Assembly (NCBI GenBank): GCA_028824015.1
Contig: JAPPFC010000055.1
Span: 40,506 to 104,505 of the forward strand
Origin: a bacterium
GTDB taxonomy: Bacteria; Actinomycetota; Acidimicrobiia; Spongiisociales; ZC4RG35
DNA length: 64,000 nucleotides
Reading direction: 5' to 3'
Shown one piece after another: positions 21,327 through 29,436 of this stretch. Below the pieces are notes generated by a model. That model did not search any database. It was not told the origin of the DNA and saw nothing but the letters and a program-made list of their open reading frames with translations. Made by a program: the position numbers and the translations under genes. Within the stretch, counting starts at the first letter, position 1, and every line of letters starts with the position of its first letter.

Positions 21327-22865
21327 TCACTCCCATTCGATCGTGGCGGGAGGCTTGGAGGAGACATCGTAGAGCACCCGATTGATGCCCTCCACCTCAC
21401 CGATCACCCGCCGGGAGATGTTGGACAGAACCTGATAGGGAAGCCGGGCCCAGTCCGCCGTCATAGCCTCGTCGCTTTCCACCGCCCGCACCACCAGGGG
21501 ATAGGCGTACGTGCGCCCATCCCCTTGGACTCCCACCGACCGGACGGCAGGCAGGACTCCAAACACCTGCCACAGGTCGCGATACAAACCAGCCTTACGG
21601 ATCTCGTCCAGAACGATCGCGTCGGCCCGGCGCAGCAGGTCGAGCCGCTCGGCAGTGACCTCTCCGATTATGCGAATCGCCAGACCGGGGCCCGGAAAGG
21701 GGTGGCGCCAAACTATCTCCTCCGGCAGGCCCAACTGCTCTCCTACCGCACGAACTTCATCCTTGAACAGATCCCGAAGCGGTTCCACCAACTCCAGCCT
21801 CATGTGCTCGGGAAGGCCACCCACGTTGTGGTGGCTTTTGATCACCGCCGCGTCCCCGCCTCCCGACTCGATTACATCGGGATAGAGCGTTCCCTGCACC
21901 AGATAACCACACCCTGAGAGCCGGTCGGAGACCTCCTCGAACACCTTGATGAAGGTCTCCCCGATGATCTTCCTCTTGGTTTCGGGATCGGTCACTCCTG
22001 AAAGAGCAGCCAGAAACCGCTTCTGAGCCTTGACATGGATCAGGTTGGTGGAGAAGTTGTCACCGAACACCTCCTCCACCTGTTCTGGCTCGTCCTGGCG
22101 GAGCAGTCCATGATCCACGAACACACAGGTGAGGCGATCTCCGATGGCCCGGTGCACAAGGGCCGCCGCCACCGCAGAGTCCACTCCCCCCGACAGCCCG
22201 CAAACTGCCCGGGACGCGCCTATCTGTTGGCGAACGTTCCGGACTTCTCTGTCGATGATCGACTGCGCCGTCCAGGAAGCCTGAACCCCGCAGGCGTCAT
22301 AGAGGAACCTCTTCAACACATCCATTCCCTTCGGAGTATGGGTCACCTCGGGATGGAACTGCACGCCGTAGAAACCCCGGTCACGGTCCTCCATCGCCGC
22401 CACGGAAGCGCCGGGAGTCCGGGCGGTGACGGTGAATCCATCCGGCGCCTTCTCCACCGCATCGCGATGGCTCATCCATACCTCGGAGACCTCCGGAAAG
22501 TCCTCCAACAGGACCGATGGGCCTTCCACCTCCATTGCCGTATTCCCGAACTCGCCCCCGCCGGTGGCGGCCACCCGCCCTCCCAGCAACTCGGCGATGA
22601 GCTGGTGGCCGTAGCAGATCCCCAGCACCGGAACCCCCAAGTCCAGCAATCCGGGGTCGATGGAGACCGCATCGGGCGAATAGACGGATGCCGGTCCACC
22701 CGAGAGAACGATGCCGGACGGGGAACGCTCTCTTGCCTCGGCGGCGGTGATACGGGCGGGCACGATCTCTGAATGGACTCTCGCCTCCCGGATGCGACGG
22801 GCGATCAGACGGGCGTACTGAGCCCCAAGATCCACAACCAGTACATTGTCGGCGGAGACGGTCAA
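21327..22865 (-). CDS. guaA: GMP synthase (glutamine-hydrolysing)
   Basis: 512 aa. GATase-1 N-terminus ([28 protein letters not shown]), an ATP-PPase SGGVDS motif, and a C-terminal dimerisation domain ending IEWE. Confidence 0.92.
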
Positions 22866-24325: not shown

Positions 24326-25891
24326 ATGCGCCGATTGATCGTTGCAGTCGCCCTGATCCTGGCGTCATGCGGTGGCGAGACGGCATCTGAAACCCCCGTG
24401 GAGCCTGCCGAAACCGCCACCACATCCCCGGCCACAACCGAGTCCCCGGCCGAGCCCGCCGTGGAAACCACGTCAACCGCGCCCTCCCCCGACGAAACCA
24501 CCTCCACCACCTCGGCCGTCACCACTACCGCCGCGGCGGAAGCCCCCACCGACGCGGCACCGGCAGACTCAGGCGACTCCGTCTCTCTGGTTTCGAGCGA
24601 CGGATACACCTTCCCACCTCCCCCCGAGTTCCCCGAGGGCGGTATCTCGGTTGAACTGCGCCATGACCTCAATGCCTTCTTCGAGATTCTCGAACGTGAC
24701 CGCAGATTCGGCCACATGGAGTTGATGTCTTTCACCAACCACGACGACATCCGTATCGCCTGGGTCCTCACCGATCTACTGCGCTTCGCCAACAGTCTCG
24801 AACTCATTGAGGTGATACAGGACCGACTCCAGAGAATGTTGGGAGACGAAGGGATAGCCGGGGACCCCAACTACCTGTGGAAACGGGCCACCGACCTTCT
24901 CATCGCCTGGGACCTCCCCGCATTCCCCGATTACCCGAAATTCAAAAAGCGCCTGTTCGTACTGGTGGAGCCGCTCTGGGAGCCGTTCTTCAACGACCCG
25001 GACGCAACCATCGACTGGCGCTGGGTGAGTTGGGGCGGAGTCTTCATCGATGACCGGCCCCTCGGCGCCACCTTCCCCTGCTCGCGGGGATGCATCCCTT
25101 CCCTGGACGACCCCGCGGTAACCCCGGCTTCTGAAGGAGACTGGTACCCCGACGACCGGGTGGTCTTCGGCGTGACCATCAACGGAGAGTCCCGCGCCTA
25201 TCCCAAACACCAGATGGAAATCCACGAGATGGTCAATGACACCCTGGGGGGACGGCGGATCGGGATGCCCTATTGCACTCTTTGCGGCTCGGCGCAGGCG
25301 TACCTCACCGACGGGGTCCCCGAGGGGACCGAGGTCCCGGTTCTCCGCACTTCGGGGCTCCTGAACAGGTCGAACAAGGTCATGTACGACCTCAACACGT
25401 CGTCGGTGTTCGACACCTTCACCGGTGAAGCCGTGTCGGGCCCGCTGCGGGAATCCGGCATCCGGTTGAAACAGGCCACGGTGGTTTCATCCACTTGGGG
25501 TGCATGGAAGGAAGCCCACCCTGACACCACCATCCTGGCCGAAGACGGCGGACTGGGTCGGTTCTATCCACTCGACCCCCTGGGGGGCAGAGACGACCAT
25601 GGCCCGATCTTCCCGGTGGGAGACGTGGACACCCGCCTCGGTGTTCAAGACCTGGTGGTGGGCGTGGAACTGGAGGACGGAAGAACCATTGCCTTCTCCC
25701 GAGAAGCCGCCCTGGCCGTCATCGACTCGGGGGGAGAGGTGACCGCGGAGGGTGTGCGGCTGATCAAGGACGGCGACGGGCTTCGGGCCATCTCGGTCTC
25801 GGACGGATCCGAGATCCCCTCCCACCAGGCCTTCTGGTTCGCTTGGAGCCAGTTCCGGCCCGACACCCGGCTATGGTCGTCCTCCGGTTGA
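24326..25891 (+). CDS. Lipoprotein with a low-complexity S/T/P/A linker and a C-terminal DUF3179-like domain
   Basis: Lipobox LILASCGG, followed by ~90 aa of PATTESPAEPA-type linker. The C-terminal region (GESRAYPKHQMEIHEMVNDTLGGRRIGMPYCTLCGSAQAY...SGLLNRSNKVMYDLNTSSVFDTFTG) resembles DUF3179. Confidence 0.6.
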   Translation: MRRLIVAVALILASCGGETASETPVEPAETATTSPATTESPAEPAVETTSTAPSPDETTSTTSAVTTTAAAEAPTDAAPADSGDSVSLVSSDGYTFPPPPEFPEGGISVELRHDLNAFFEILERDRRFGHMELMSFTNHDDIRIAWVLTDLLRFANSLELIEVIQDRLQRMLGDEGIAGDPNYLWKRATDLLIAWDLPAFPDYPKFKKRLFVLVEPLWEPFFNDPDATIDWRWVSWGGVFIDDRPLGATFPCSRGCIPSLDDPAVTPASEGDWYPDDRVVFGVTINGESRAYPKHQMEIHEMVNDTLGGRRIGMPYCTLCGSAQAYLTDGVPEGTEVPVLRTSGLLNRSNKVMYDLNTSSVFDTFTGEAVSGPLRESGIRLKQATVVSSTWGAWKEAHPDTTILAEDGGLGRFYPLDPLGGRDDHGPIFPVGDVDTRLGVQDLVVGVELEDGRTIAFSREAALAVIDSGGEVTAEGVRLIKDGDGLRAISVSDGSEIPSHQAFWFAWSQFRPDTRLWSSSG

Positions 25892-25923: not shown

Positions 25924-26925
25924 CTAGGTTGACAACCCCACCGCTTCCCAGACGGTAGCCATGGAGACCGCGGCCCGGCGGCGGGCCTCGGCGGCGCCTT
26001 CGGACATCAGGCGTGACACCTCGGCGTCCTCCATACCCTCATATCGCTCCCGCACCGGCGCCATGTACTCACAGAGCGCCTCGGCCACCGCGCCCTTGAA
26101 CCGACCGTAGCCCTGGTCCCGGTACTCGGAGGCCAGGTCCTCGGCCGAGCGGCCGGAGGCCACCGAGAACAACTCCAGCAGGTTCGAGATACCCGGCTTC
26201 GTCTCCCAGTCGTAGTCCACCGTGCGTCCCGAGTCGGTCACCGCGGCGCGCACCTTGCGGCGGATCTGGTCGGCCGAGTCGGTCAACAGCAGCCGGGAAC
26301 GCACGTCGGGATCGCTCTTGGACATCTTGGAGGTGGGATCCTGGAGCGACATCACCCGCGCTCCCACCTCGGGAGTGATCCGGTCAGGAACAGGGAACAC
26401 CTCTCCGAATCGGTGGTTGAATCGCTCCACCAGATCCCGCGTCAACTCCAAGTGCTGGCGCTGGTCGTCGCCCACCGGCACAGCGTGCACCTTGTGGATC
26501 AGGATGTCGGCCGCCATCAAGACCGGATAGGACAGGAGTCCCAGATTCTGGCCGGTGCGATCCGCCTTCTCCTTGTACTGGGTCATCCGGTTGAGCTGCC
26601 CGATCCCCGTGATGGTCGACAGCACCCAGGCCAGTTCGGCGTGCTGGGGAACCTGGGACTGGAAGTAGAACACCGAGCGCCCGGGATCTATCCCCGATGC
26701 CATCACCAGCTTGGCGGTCTCGAGACGGGCGGTCCCGAAAGCGACCGGATCGTAGGGGACGGTCATGGCATGGAGGTCCACCACGCAGTAGTACGTCTCG
26801 TAGTCCTGCTGCATCTGCGCCCAGTTGCGCAACGCTCCCACCAGATTGCCCAGGTGGAGCTCACCGGTGGGTTGGATACCCGAGAAAACCCTCTTCTTGC
26901 CTTCGACCATTGGAACAGCGCTCAT
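25924..26925 (-). CDS. trpS: Tryptophan--tRNA ligase
   Basis: FSGIQPTGELHLGNLVGA (HIGH-type) and KMSKS, both class I TrpS signatures. The start MSAVPMVEGKK has GGAGG upstream. The track ORF extends to 27105. Confidence 0.9.
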   Translation of the reverse strand: MSAVPMVEGKKRVFSGIQPTGELHLGNLVGALRNWAQMQQDYETYYCVVDLHAMTVPYDPVAFGTARLETAKLVMASGIDPGRSVFYFQSQVPQHAELAWVLSTITGIGQLNRMTQYKEKADRTGQNLGLLSYPVLMAADILIHKVHAVPVGDDQRQHLELTRDLVERFNHRFGEVFPVPDRITPEVGARVMSLQDPTSKMSKSDPDVRSRLLLTDSADQIRRKVRAAVTDSGRTVDYDWETKPGISNLLELFSVASGRSAEDLASEYRDQGYGRFKGAVAEALCEYMAPVRERYEGMEDAEVSRLMSEGAAEARRRAAVSMATVWEAVGLST

Positions 26926-26934
26926 CCTAGCCAG

Positions 26935-26963
26935 TTGACATCCTCCCTTGACTCTGCCATAAT
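26935..26963 (+). promoter_or_regulatory. Sigma-70-type promoter: TTGACA (26935-26940) - 17 nt - CATAAT (26958-26963)
   Basis: A near-consensus -35 and -10 with optimal spacing in the trpS/cimA divergent region. It is unusually AT-clear for this genome. A TSS about 7 nt downstream would make the leader ORF leaderless. Confidence 0.55.
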
Positions 26964-26970
26964 GGCCGCC

Positions 26971-27012
26971 ATGCAAGAGTTCGACTCCCTTTCCATCATT
27001 ATCGACCCATAG
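26971..27012 (+). CDS. Putative attenuator leader peptide MQEFDSLSIIIDP (three consecutive Ile codons)
   Basis: ATG CAA GAG TTC GAC TCC CTT TCC ATC ATT ATC GAC CCA TAG lies immediately downstream of the promoter and 28 nt upstream of a terminator hairpin that precedes cimA. Confidence 0.5.
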   Translation: MQEFDSLSIIIDP

Positions 27013-27040
27013 GCGCCGGCCAGCCCACAGCCCGCGCCAA

Positions 27041-27067
27041 GCCCTCTGCTGAGCAGAGGGCTTTTTG
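27041..27067 (+). terminator. Intrinsic terminator/attenuator hairpin GCCCTCTGC-TGA-GCAGAGGGC followed by TTTTTG, about 20 nt upstream of the cimA ATG
   Basis: A perfect 9-bp GC-rich stem with a 3-nt loop and a 5-U tract on the + strand. No + strand gene ends upstream of it, so it lies within the cimA 5' leader. Confidence 0.6.
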
Positions 27068-27087
27068 ATTGCCCACCGGAGAAAACC

Positions 27088-28728
27088 ATGGCCCCCACAG
27101 TCCATCCGGAACTCGAGATCTACGACACGACCTTACGCGACGGCGCCCAGCAGGAGGGGATCTCTCTCACCGTCTCCGACAAGCTGCGGATCGCCTCCCT
27201 CCTGGACTCCCTGGGAGTCCACTTCATCGAGGGCGGGTGGCCCGGCGCCTTGCCCAAGGATGACGAGTTCTTCGCCCGGGCGAAGACCGAGTTGTCCCTG
27301 TCCAACAGCCAACTCACCGCTTTCGGATCCACACGTCGCCCCTCCCGACGAGTGGAGAGCGATCCCCAGATACGAGCCCTCCTGGCGGCAGAGACCGAGA
27401 TCATCTGCATCGTGGGCAAGTCCTGGGACTACCACGTCCGAGAGGCCCTTCGCACCGACCTGGACGAGGGAATCCGCATGGCCGCCGAGTCGGTGGAGTA
27501 TCTGAAGTCACACGGCAGACGGGTGTTCTTCGACGCCGAGCACTTCTTCGACGGCTATCGCACCAATCCCCGGTACGCGGTGGCGGTGTTGCGGGCCGCA
27601 TGGGAGGCGGGCGCTGAGCGGTTGGTGCTGTGCGACACCAATGGCGGGGCTCTGCCCATCCAGATAAACAGGATCATCGATGAGATAGGACTGGCCCTGC
27701 CCGGAGCCGAACTGGGAGTCCATTTTCACGACGACGCCGGATGCGCGGTGGCTTCGTCGCTGGTAGCCGCCTCGCAGGGGGTGAGGCAGGTCCAGGGATG
27801 TATAAACGGCTATGGAGAGCGGACCGGAAACGCAAACCTCTCCACGGTCATCCCCGACCTGGTGCTGAAGATGGGGGTTCCGGTGGTGGACCAGGAGCGC
27901 CTCTCCCAGATTTCTCCCATCTCCCATCACATCGCCGAGGTGGTGAACATCACCCTGGAACCTCATCGCCCGTATGTTGGCGGTTCGGCGTTCACGCACA
28001 AGGCCGGTCTGCACACCTCTGCTCTGGCCCGCCGCCCCGACGCCTACGAGCACACCCGTCCCGACCTGGTTGGCAACCACACCCGGATGGTCATCTCCGA
28101 GCAGGCCGGGCGGGCGGCGGTGATCCGGAGAGCCGCCTCCCTGGGGCTCACGATCTCCCAGGACCTGGCCGGGGAGGTCCTCGGGCACATCAAGGAGATG
28201 GAACACCGCGGATACCAGTTCGAAGCGGCCGACGGGACCTTCGAGTTGTTGGTGAGACGCACGCTCGGCTGGAGCCAGAACCTATTCTCGGCCCACAGCT
28301 TCTCGGTCTCCATCCAACATGACGGCGCCGATGGCGAGATCGTCTCCCAGGCCGAGGTCGTGGTGGAAGTCGGAGGGATCCGTCACCGCACCGCGGGCAC
28401 CGGAGTGGGACCTGTCCACGCCTTGGACCAGGCACTGCGCGCCTCTCTGATCTCGGCCTTCCCGCAACTCGATCGTCTCCGGTTGATCGACTTCCGGGTG
28501 AGGGTGCTGGACTCCTCCGACGGCACCAGCGCCACCGTCCGGGTGTTGATCGAGACCTCCGACGGCGTCACCTCCTGGGGGACGGTGGGGGTTCATCCCA
28601 ACATCATCGAAGCCTCATGGGAGGCGCTCTCGGACGGGCTGACCGTGGGTTTGTTGCGGCTCGGCGCCGCCCAGCAACCACCCCCTGCAGGTCTTCTAGG
28701 TTTGGGAACTGCATCCGACCCTAAATGA
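27088..28728 (+). CDS. cimA: (R)-citramalate synthase (LeuA-family; isoleucine biosynthesis)
   Basis: IYDTTLRDGAQQEGISLTVSDKLRIASLLDSLGVHFIEGGWPGALPKDDEFF matches the CimA subfamily rather than short LeuA. 546 aa with a LeuA-dimer C-terminal domain. GGAGA RBS. Confidence 0.8.
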   Translation: MAPTVHPELEIYDTTLRDGAQQEGISLTVSDKLRIASLLDSLGVHFIEGGWPGALPKDDEFFARAKTELSLSNSQLTAFGSTRRPSRRVESDPQIRALLAAETEIICIVGKSWDYHVREALRTDLDEGIRMAAESVEYLKSHGRRVFFDAEHFFDGYRTNPRYAVAVLRAAWEAGAERLVLCDTNGGALPIQINRIIDEIGLALPGAELGVHFHDDAGCAVASSLVAASQGVRQVQGCINGYGERTGNANLSTVIPDLVLKMGVPVVDQERLSQISPISHHIAEVVNITLEPHRPYVGGSAFTHKAGLHTSALARRPDAYEHTRPDLVGNHTRMVISEQAGRAAVIRRAASLGLTISQDLAGEVLGHIKEMEHRGYQFEAADGTFELLVRRTLGWSQNLFSAHSFSVSIQHDGADGEIVSQAEVVVEVGGIRHRTAGTGVGPVHALDQALRASLISAFPQLDRLRLIDFRVRVLDSSDGTSATVRVLIETSDGVTSWGTVGVHPNIIEASWEALSDGLTVGLLRLGAAQQPPPAGLLGLGTASDPK

Positions 28729-28765: not shown

Positions 28766-29404
28766 TTGATGAACCAAAAGTCTCAACCTCGGGTCGTCGT
28801 CTACGTTGACGGATTCAACTTCTATTACGGTGCTCTCAAGAAGACCCACCTGAAGTGGGTAGATCATCGAGCCCTTGCGGAAGCTCTCTTGCGAGGCTAC
28901 AGCATCGAGAGAGTGAAGTATTTCACAGCACGAGTGAAGAATCGGCCTGATGATCCAGGCCTGTCACAACGCCAGAATGACTACATCCGAGCCCTGGTTG
29001 CCCATGCCGACGTGGAGGTACATTTCGGACAGTTCAAGCTGCGTCCCAAACGACTGCCTTTGGCTGGAAACCTGCAGAAATTCACCAGAGTGATCTCCAC
29101 TGAGGAGAAGGGATCAGATGTGTCATTAGGTGCCCATCTAGTGTGGGACGCATGTCATGATCTGATGGACACTGCCCTTGTCATTTCCAACGACAGCGAC
29201 CTTCAAACTCCAGTCGATATGGCTGACAAGAAGGGCATAACGGTAATAACACTCAACCCTCACCGCCGATCAGGGCAACCCCGGCGTCTCTTCGGTTCGG
29301 AGGAACGAACCTTGCGGCTGAGGCACCTGCGACGTTCTCAGTTGCCAGACCCGGTTATCGATGAACGGGGCGGACGCATCCCGAAACCTAGGGAGTGGAA
29401 GTGA
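28766..29404 (+). CDS. NYN (LabA-like/PIN-like) domain protein with an Arg-rich C-terminal tail
   Basis: RVVVYVDGFNFYYG...VISNDSDL are NYN signature motifs, and the basic tail is RRSGQPRRLF...RLRHLRR. The gene and its flanks are ~50% GC against ~68% in surrounding DNA. Confidence 0.75.
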   Translation: MMNQKSQPRVVVYVDGFNFYYGALKKTHLKWVDHRALAEALLRGYSIERVKYFTARVKNRPDDPGLSQRQNDYIRALVAHADVEVHFGQFKLRPKRLPLAGNLQKFTRVISTEEKGSDVSLGAHLVWDACHDLMDTALVISNDSDLQTPVDMADKKGITVITLNPHRRSGQPRRLFGSEERTLRLRHLRRSQLPDPVIDERGGRIPKPREWK

Positions 29405-29408
29405 TGCA

Positions 29409-29436
29409 CAAAGGCCCGCCGAGGCGGGCCTTTGTT
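29409..29436 (+). terminator. Terminator hairpin AAAGGCCCGCC-GAG-GCGGGCCTTT followed by GTTGGG
   Basis: A perfect inverted repeat 5 nt after the NYN stop codon. Confidence 0.6.

Follow-up and report, generated by a model that had tools for sequence, protein, structure and literature searches.

It is established that in Actinobacteria the genes ilvB, leuA, trpE, leuS, trpS and others are preceded by leaderless leader peptides, with hairpins and a U stretch behind them (PMC1262725, PMC8079986), and attenuator components were reported to be often 'missing' in these leaders (Seliverstov 2005, PMC1262725). In Mycobacterium tuberculosis, the ilvB1NC leader contains an upstream open reading frame (uORF) with LVVI as regulatory codons and a Rho-independent terminator, and changing LVVI to AAAA abolishes induction (PMC13236596). 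In the ilvB1 model, a ribosome at the stop codon masks the first hairpin, while a stalled ribosome lets this hairpin form (PMC13236596). Here, we analyzed the region upstream of cimA, the gene for citramalate synthase, in a 64,000-nucleotide (nt) stretch of an acidimicrobial genome assembly of the order Spongiisociales (contig JAPPFC010000055.1 of GCA_028824015.1), which is called the window below. This region carries a near-consensus promoter, a short open reading frame (ORF) with three isoleucine codons near its end, a hairpin (H1) and an intrinsic terminator (T). In our judgment these elements probably constitute an Ile-responsive, ribosome-mediated transcription attenuator of the actinobacterial leaderless-leader-peptide type. 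A preliminary description of this DNA, made from its letters, had proposed an attenuator of the classic trp/his/ilv design at the same place.

The cimA leader and its homologues

The genes trpS (start at 26925, minus strand; its product matches TIGR00233 with 334.8 bits) and cimA are divergent, and the entire leader arrangement is contained in the 162-nt gap between them. The cimA gene (27088..28728, plus strand, as are all leader features described here) encodes a protein of 546 amino acids that scores 657.6 bits against the citramalate synthase family TIGR00977, for which the cut-off is 450. The leader promoter consists of the -35 hexamer TTGACA (26935..26940) and an extended -10 element, TGC-CATAAT (26955..26963, with the hexamer at 26958-26963). 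It has 11 out of 12 consensus matches, a 17-nt spacer and a TG one base 5' of the -10, and it is the sole match of at least 11/12 on both strands of the 64 kb, where shuffled sequences would give an expected 0.02. TTGAC is found at equal spacing in most related loci, and the -10 element is invariant in the three closest relatives. The leader ORF MQEFDSLSIIIDP (26971..27012) has 13 codons and a TAG stop (27010-27012). Since its ATG (26971) sits only 7 nt past the -10, the transcript is predicted to be leaderless. The same geometry was observed in nearly all of 44 leaders, where 6-10 nt separate the start codon from the end of a -10-like hexamer, in most cases CATACT or CATAAT. The putative regulatory codons ATC ATT ATC (Ile-Ile-Ile, 26995..27003) belong to an Ile run that is conserved in the family. 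Runs of three ATH codons with a stop at most three codons later occur only twice in the whole window, counting both strands.

The leader folds better than all of 200 shuffled sequences (z = -3.19), and the minimum free energy (MFE) structure of the window contains both H1 and T, which have no bases in common. H1 (27012..27038; GGCGC(C)GGC / GCC(C)GCGCC, eight pairs and one C-C mismatch) is supported by folding and by covariation. It begins with the G of the TAG stop and extends to the nucleotide immediately before the terminator. T (27039..27068), which is marked by a stem with a U tract and likewise by covariation, has the stem AAGCCCTCTGC-TGA-GCAGAGGGCTT (27039-27063) with 11 pairs, seven of them G-C, and TTTG comes next; the U run (27062-27066) is followed by GA. 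With 11 bp, UUUUU and -19 kcal/mol, this is a canonical and strong terminator. The Ile codons are located 36 nt 5' of it, with H1 in between. The cimA ATG (27088) begins 24 nt beyond the T stem and is preceded by the Shine-Dalgarno (SD) sequence GGAG (27078..27081). Because these 24 nt leave no room for a promoter of its own, cimA expression depends on read-through of T. In most relatives the SD sequence lies immediately 3' of the U-rich tail, and the cimA ATG is found 17-28 nt beyond T.

The elements that the preliminary description had listed are thus all present in the DNA, at the positions it gave: the near-consensus promoter TTGACA-17-CATAAT, said to be rare and in fact unique in the window at this level, the 13-codon ORF with ATC ATT ATC, the gene for citramalate synthase, and a cimA ribosome-binding site (RBS) with ATG shortly past the terminator. 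It had also reported a 9-bp GC stem with a TGA loop; the terminator is indeed there, but its stem has 11 bp, of which these nine are the core. H1, the second covarying hairpin, was absent from its list of elements.

To place the window copy among relatives, 80 related loci with CimA (49-89% identity) were collected, mostly from metagenome-assembled genomes (MAGs) of Acidimicrobiia and also from some Actinomycetes, including the isolate Knoellia koreensis; with the window this gave 81 sources. Inspection of the upstream regions by eye and by script revealed a recurrent order of a TTGAC -35, a CATACT-like -10, an ORF (8-17 codons) with its Ile run 0-2 codons ahead of the stop, H1, a terminator and a U-rich tail. 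A strict pattern scan of the loci and the window (1.23 Mb over both strands) returned 30 matches, all of them on the cimA strand and upstream of cimA. We also built a covariance model, R1, from 13 seeds, with the two-hairpin structure specified by hand and realignment by Infernal. This realignment replaced an alignment of the raw leaders by MAFFT and RNAalifold, which had misaligned the H1 columns and recovered five terminator pairs. R1 found 58 full-length matches in 57 of the 81 sources (Acidimicrobiia and some Actinomycetes), all on the plus strand and, apart from one of them before ilvB, upstream of cimA or its operon. Within the 64 kb of the window, R1 has a single match, at 26995-27070 (31.3 bits, E = 3.7e-5). 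The claim that an Ile-codon leader and an intrinsic terminator precede cimA, and the conservation upstream of cimA orthologues that it led one to look for, are both borne out by these matches and by the codon usage described below.

The conservation is that of base pairing. In the R1 alignment 96.7% of cells were paired, versus 42-54% when the partners were slid. Compensatory changes were present in 17 of 19 pairs, and none of 500 shuffles equalled the observed values; for the terminator, nine of ten pairs carried compensatory changes. Independently of the alignment, each sequence alone folds to the same two hairpins, and 21 distinct 8-mers make up the H1 5' arm in 29 loci. The three closest genomes diverge in codons 2-8, in the spacer of the promoter, in the loop of the terminator and in the stretch from the terminator to cimA. 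Their promoter, H1 arms, terminator arms and the segment ATCATTATCGACCCATAG are invariant or changed with compensation. Two of the loci (L001 and L002) keep the ORF length and the IIIDP-stop end, with variation in codons 2-8.

Counted from the C terminus, Ile occupies position -2 in 50 of 57 leader peptides, -3 in 45 and -4 in 40, with Val at -4 in ten more. Outside this I-I-I near the C terminus, the positions vary freely among the 57 leaders. This pattern points to a leader peptide rather than a functional protein. The leader of Knoellia koreensis DB2414S (L076, NZ_JABEPQ010000001.1), a cultured carrier of the element, reads MTSWHVATAMVIID. The ATT share of Ile codons is 34% in the leaders versus 10% in the cimA genes.

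The codons also follow the genes that are regulated. Over the last six residues, leaders directly ahead of cimA (n = 32) carry 3.0 Ile and 0.16 Val on average. In 24 loci the element is farther from cimA, at 1.1-2.4 kb upstream. Elsewhere among the Acidimicrobiia, cimA closes an operon, leuB-ilvE-cimA or leuB-cimA, with the leader ahead of leuB. A scan of the intervening ORFs placed the leader ahead of leuB-cimA or leuB-ilvE-cimA (NF002898, NF005146) in L035, L040, L068, L069 and L079; the distance from leader to cimA is ∼2 kb in L035, L040 and L079 and ∼1.1 kb in L068, L069 and L072. In the same six C-terminal positions, leaders of leuB-(ilvE)-cimA operons carry 2.4 Ile and 1.1 Val on average, with Val present in 20 of 24. 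It is the operons with ilvE whose leaders combine Ile and Val codons, and the three leuB-cimA leaders without ilvE are almost pure Ile. One Acidimicrobiia MAG (L047) has a second, paralogous copy downstream of cimA (6452-6570), which scores 51.4 bits with R1, a model built from cimA and operon leaders. This stretch (6420-6590) contains its own TTGAC/CATACT promoter, an apparently leaderless ORF MTNTPLTTVLLIT-TAG that ends in ...TTVLLIT, H1 and T, followed by ilvB, which encodes the large subunit of acetolactate synthase (N terminus MTTDTHITGAQALIAALEREGVDVVFGIPGG). That the codons shift with the pathway served is, in our view, the strongest non-experimental argument that the ORF is read as an amino-acid sensor.

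Several further features of the leader region deserve mention. TGA is expected as the dominant stop codon in GC-rich genomes. The leader stop is TAG in 51 of the 57 copies, and in the window the pairs of H1 begin with the G of this TAG (27010-27012). A need for base pairing could account for the bias, as could slow release dependent on release factor 1 (RF1), and the frequent TAG stop together with the ATT codon may tune dwell times. The terminator sequence (27039-27063 and its homologues) is far better conserved than that of H1; many loci have CCUCC within the T 5' arm and GGAGG within the T 3' arm, and YRTTG/C recurs past the U run. CCUCC is the anti-SD sequence and GGAGG resembles an SD sequence. 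We considered the T 3' arm as the SD sequence of cimA, with a TTG or ATG right past the U tract as start codon, and ruled this out: the conserved N terminus places the ATG 12-15 nt further on, with its own GGAG. In one locus (L019:1760-1800), GGGCA(C/A)CACCATGA is duplicated between the terminator and cimA, which creates two mini-ORFs with a TGA that overlaps the next ATG (ATGA); this could represent translational coupling into cimA, or chance. A further tandem-hairpin candidate in the window, at 21815, proved spurious, as it lies inside a long minus-strand ORF.

Ribosome position and rival explanations

To model a translating ribosome, the nucleotides from -12 to +14, counted from the first base of the P site, were kept unpaired, and with this footprint the pairing probabilities (P) of the hairpins were calculated at equilibrium. 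For the window, P(H1) and P(T) are 0.98 and 0.97 in the free RNA, 0.99 and 0.96 with the A site on the first Ile codon, 0.81 and 0.96 with the A site on the last Ile codon, and 0.00 and 0.94 with the stop codon in the A site. In 29 out of 29 loci, P(H1) was ∼1 with the A site on the first Ile codon and dropped to 0 once the ribosome stood at the stop, given the assumed footprint size. In this model H1 appears to be the only structure that depends on where the ribosome is. H1 starts -3 to +1 nt relative to the end of the stop codon and is separated from T by 0-4 nt in the 29 loci (by zero in the window); by these conserved spacings, the place of H1 is set relative to the stop codon and not to the Ile run.

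In a classical four-segment attenuator of the trp, his and ilv operons, stalling of the ribosome causes an upstream segment to pair with a terminator arm, and the resulting antiterminator and the terminator are mutually exclusive. At first sight some features of the cimA leaders fit such a design. The loop and 3' arm of H1 are C-rich and similar to the T 5' arm (CAGCCCACAGC and AAGCCCTCTGC agree at 8 of 11 positions), the best partner of the T 3' arm lies in the loop/3' arm part of H1 in 15 of 29 loci, and in two loci (L011 and L012) this pairing prevails once the H1 5' arm is masked. However, an H1 3' arm paired with the T 3' arm would still place a hairpin ahead of the U tract. The preliminary description had named the segment AGCCCACAGCCC (27022-27033) as the one that might pair with GGGCT. 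This pairing, which amounts to -11.0 kcal/mol, is weak when compared with shuffled sequences (z = +0.24), and the segment lies inside H1. Upstream duplex partners for either terminator arm were mostly no better than shuffled sequence (most z ≥ 0). Pairing of the H1 3' arm with the T 5' arm, calculated for 44 leaders, is weaker than in shuffled sequence (median about -4 kcal/mol; mean z +0.74); a modest exception is formed by L035, L036 and L038, with -8 to -10 kcal/mol. Kinetic sequestration of the T 5' arm was not found in truncated transcripts in any ribosome state, as this arm is paired with a probability of 0.23 when the ribosome is stalled versus 0.34 when it is at the stop. A scan of the family alignment for a conserved alternative 5-bp helix gave, apart from trivial G-U pairing with the U tract, a best value of 0.64-0.69 paired, versus at least 0.9 for H1 and T. 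A pseudoknot between the H1 loop and the terminator is possible in the window and some other loci, but by eye it is absent in, for example, L007, L021, L068, L069, L072 and L079. Moreover, the G-rich arm of H1 switches between clades (GGCGCCGGC... in the window, CGCACAC... elsewhere), and therefore there is no conserved sequence complementarity between H1 and the terminator. Since T also forms with P ∼0.95 in all ribosome states in 27 of 29 loci, we consider a four-segment attenuator distinctly improbable here. The preliminary description had itself held that a fold without an alternative to the terminator would speak against its proposal; with no alternative pairing that beats shuffled sequence or is conserved, the classical mechanism fails on this point, while the attenuator as such stands.

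Another explanation is that the terminator is inefficient in vivo and requires Rho, NusA or NusG acting just upstream of it, at a site that is hidden or blocked when H1 is folded; in a variant of this idea, H1 is a pause hairpin that keeps polymerase and ribosome in step. NusG is known to aid weak terminators, and Rho shapes premature termination in mycobacteria. The U tracts of many relatives are imperfect (for example TTCTCTCGTT and CTTTCATTT), the GC skew of the leader is strongly negative (-0.28), and a ribosome that has to catch up with the polymerase within a 100-nt leader would kinetically need a pause. The window terminator is nevertheless canonical and strong, a pause hairpin alone would terminate transcription in both states, and the H1 3' arm is C-rich in some clades and G/U-rich in others, so that the clade switch in H1 argues against a conserved C-rich site for Rho or another factor to load on. 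We hold factor-dependent coupling to be unlikely. Control could also act on translation, with the leader ORF pairing with the cimA RBS until a stalled ribosome frees the SD sequence, comparable to the cysteine-responsive leaderless small ORFs of mycobacteria or to the LEU element. The window MFE structure does pair UUUCC, just 5' of the Ile codons, with GGAGA, and AUCGA with UUGAU, and the cimA SD sequence immediately follows the U tract. Yet duplexes between ORF and RBS are no better than those of shuffled sequences (mean z +0.54 over 29 loci; -8.7 kcal/mol and z = +0.44 in the window), the partners sit at non-conserved positions, and a strong conserved terminator with a U tract speaks for control at the level of transcription, which makes translational control very improbable. 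Finally, there may be no sensor at all: the ORF could have arisen by chance or encode a small protein of its own next to a constitutive tandem terminator, or the inverted repeats could serve as DNA operators for a transcription factor. Short ORFs and hairpins are common in GC-rich DNA, and by a loose criterion about half of the terminator-like hairpins of the window have an adjacent hairpin. Against this stand the 58 homologous copies in a single orientation, always ahead of cimA or genes for branched-chain amino acids (BCAA). Their conservation is limited to the Ile/Val run, the reading frame, a short ORF and the place of its stop, and does not extend to a protein sequence. The codons change with the regulated genes. 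Complementarity rather than sequence is kept, and the 17 of 19 compensated pairs are the signature of an RNA and not of a protein-binding DNA site. As the 24 nt past T moreover have no space for a separate cimA promoter, the absence of a sensor is scarcely credible.

Proposed mechanism and surroundings of the locus

We therefore return to the Ile-responsive attenuator, for which sequence and comparison show the parts, their conservation and covariation, the tracking of codons with the regulated genes and the dependence of H1, alone among the structures, on the modelled position of the ribosome. To these we add, by inference, a leaderless start, translation of the ORF, a response to Ile and a way in which folded H1 suppresses a terminator with which it has no bases in common. 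In the proposed scheme, the strong promoter would start the transcript at or adjoining the ATG of the 13-codon ORF, and a 70S ribosome would translate this ORF as RNA polymerase makes the next ∼90 nt. The three Ile codons, including the rarer ATT, would then sense the supply of charged tRNA-Ile. When Ile is abundant, the ribosome would get to the TAG and its footprint would cover the H1 5' arm, upon which the terminator could fold freely and transcription would end. When Ile is scarce, the ribosome would stall with its front edge at the base of H1, H1 would remain folded and read-through would be favoured. This assignment, in which folded H1 has to go with read-through and melted H1 with termination, is made because the biological logic needs read-through at low levels of Ile-tRNA.

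Since no conserved pairing connects H1 with the terminator, the role of H1 looks structural and independent of its sequence. Our preferred guess is a steric one. With its 27 nt collapsed, folded H1 would form a rigid helix that, together with the stalled ribosome, sits only 0-4 nt away from the T 5' arm, and this bulky neighbour would keep the lower stem of T from being drawn into the exit channel of the polymerase. A ribosome at the stop would unzip H1 and leave 10-15 nt of flexible RNA, such that the terminator could be completed. Alternatives for the step from H1 to the terminator are factor dependence (Rho, NusA, NusG), a role as pause hairpin, or weak pairings below the sensitivity of our tests. 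We thus offer only tentatively, and with more doubt than confidence, the suggestion that the cimA leader represents a distinct attenuator design, in which the 'antiterminator' has no bases in common with the terminator and imposes a sequence-independent steric or kinetic block on completion of the stem. If true, such a design would explain why many actinobacterial attenuators seem to 'lack' an antiterminator.

A number of points weigh against the attenuator as we interpret it. The terminator forms at equilibrium in every modelled ribosome state. An antiterminator overlapping the terminator was sought by five approaches (duplexes, masked partition functions, truncated transcripts, arm-arm energies and a conserved-helix scan) and was not found by any of them; therefore, the physical link between ribosome position and termination is a hypothetical one. 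The footprint was taken from other bacteria, and one that is 2-3 nt longer would mean that a ribosome at the last Ile codon also opens the weak H1 of the window. With respect to the comparative data, the covariation alignment was fitted to the model's own structure, and the related loci, most of which are MAGs, are phylogenetically non-independent.

The surroundings of the leader include features of the two flanking genes. The trpS start codon lies 9 nt from the leader -35, and the segment GAACAGCnnTCATCCTAGCC (window 26911-26934, minus strand) is kept in L001 and L002. Because the trpS start is so near to the leader -35, the trpS promoter must overlap the cimA leader region on the opposite strand; a search of that strand of the leader region for a consensus trpS promoter found none. 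There is also no space for a Trp leader ahead of trpS. Downstream of trpS, an ORF of 521 amino acids (24326-25891) contains DUF3179 (PF11376, E = 1.8e-59) and has no match to an NCBIfam family. On the other side, an ORF of 212 amino acids with an NYN domain (28766-29431; PF01936, E = 1.1e-07) begins 38 nt past cimA. Its GC content is ∼0.52 versus ∼0.64 around it, and a clean terminator (AGGCCCGCCGAGGCGGGCCT and a T-rich stretch, 29412-29431) lies behind it. This ORF may be a horizontally acquired passenger that is co-transcribed with cimA.

Comparison with known attenuators

The preliminary description had remarked that attenuation of cimA by isoleucine was undescribed for this clade, and our searches agree with that. 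Rfam 15, which includes the T-box and the Leu, His, Thr and Trp leaders, gave no relevant match on 26500-27500 at E values up to 10, and in 19 related loci its scan returned tRNAs only. Neither a tRNA gene nor an Rfam family reaching its gathering score was found in the whole window. A full-text search of the literature on cimA or citramalate in combination with attenuation or leader peptides found nothing relevant. The element would offer a first view of how the citramalate route to isoleucine is regulated in Actinomycetota, with cimA, leuB-cimA or leuB-ilvE-cimA placed under an Ile or Ile plus Val leader, and the leader supports annotation of these LeuA-family enzymes as citramalate synthases of the Ile pathway. 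It also represents a well-populated family of cis-regulatory RNAs outside Rfam, with 58 copies, strong covariation and a usable covariance model. As such it forms a natural data set for the old puzzle of actinobacterial attenuators that have a terminator and no recognisable antiterminator (PMC1262725). The spacing rules (stop to H1 -3 to +1 nt; H1 to T 0-4 nt; Ile run 0-2 codons before the stop) make this puzzle open to simple mutagenesis.

Among the described systems, the M. tuberculosis ilvB1NC leader, compared here by its published description, is similar in having a uORF with BCAA codons near the stop, a first hairpin and an intrinsic terminator, and the geometry of its model is the one modelled here for H1 (PMC13236596). 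The likeness extends to the target, as the present element has a paralogous copy before ilvB with V-L-L-I codons (L047). The two differ in that the first hairpin of ilvB1NC is described as overlapping the terminator and being mutually exclusive with it, whereas H1 and T of the cimA leader share no bases and coexist; in addition, the target is cimA and the codons are pure Ile. The other actinobacterial leaders, including those of Streptomyces lividans, have the same leaderless ORF of 10-20 codons, regulatory codons, one or two hairpins and U-rich stretch, but there is no cimA leader or pure-Ile leader among them (PMC1262725, PMC8079986). For ilvB, Seliverstov et al. describe regulatory codons that overlap the hairpin of the terminator itself, unlike those of the cimA leader, which are 36 nt upstream of T with H1 in between. 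In another actinobacterium, Corynebacterium glutamicum, the BCAA attenuator of the ilvBNC operon likewise combines a near-leaderless leader peptide with several hairpins, but there the antiterminator (H2) overlaps H1 as well as the terminator (H3) (PMC11857589), and no such overlap exists at cimA.

With the trp, ilvGMEDA, ilvBN and his leaders of Escherichia coli, the cimA leader has in common the codons for the end product, a terminator before the first structural gene and the position of the ribosome as the presumed signal. The E. coli leaders, in contrast, have a 5' untranslated region with an SD sequence and overlapping 1:2, 2:3 and 3:4 pairings, and the terminating ribosome sits over segment 2, while the cimA mRNA is predicted to be leaderless, has its stop at the 5' base of the first hairpin and has no 2:3 pairing. 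At E. coli pyrBI and pyrE, a ribosome close to RNA polymerase blocks the terminator hairpin without an RNA antiterminator; the leader ORF reaches or enters the terminator, and the signal is UTP-dependent pausing of the polymerase. The steric mechanism suggested for cimA would resemble this, with folded H1 shortening the distance, although at cimA 27 nt separate the leader stop from the terminator and Ile-tRNA would be the signal. Taken together, the sensor logic appears to be that of a known leader-peptide attenuator; an overlapping antiterminator was tested for and did not emerge, while the regulated pathway, that of citramalate, and the clade are new.

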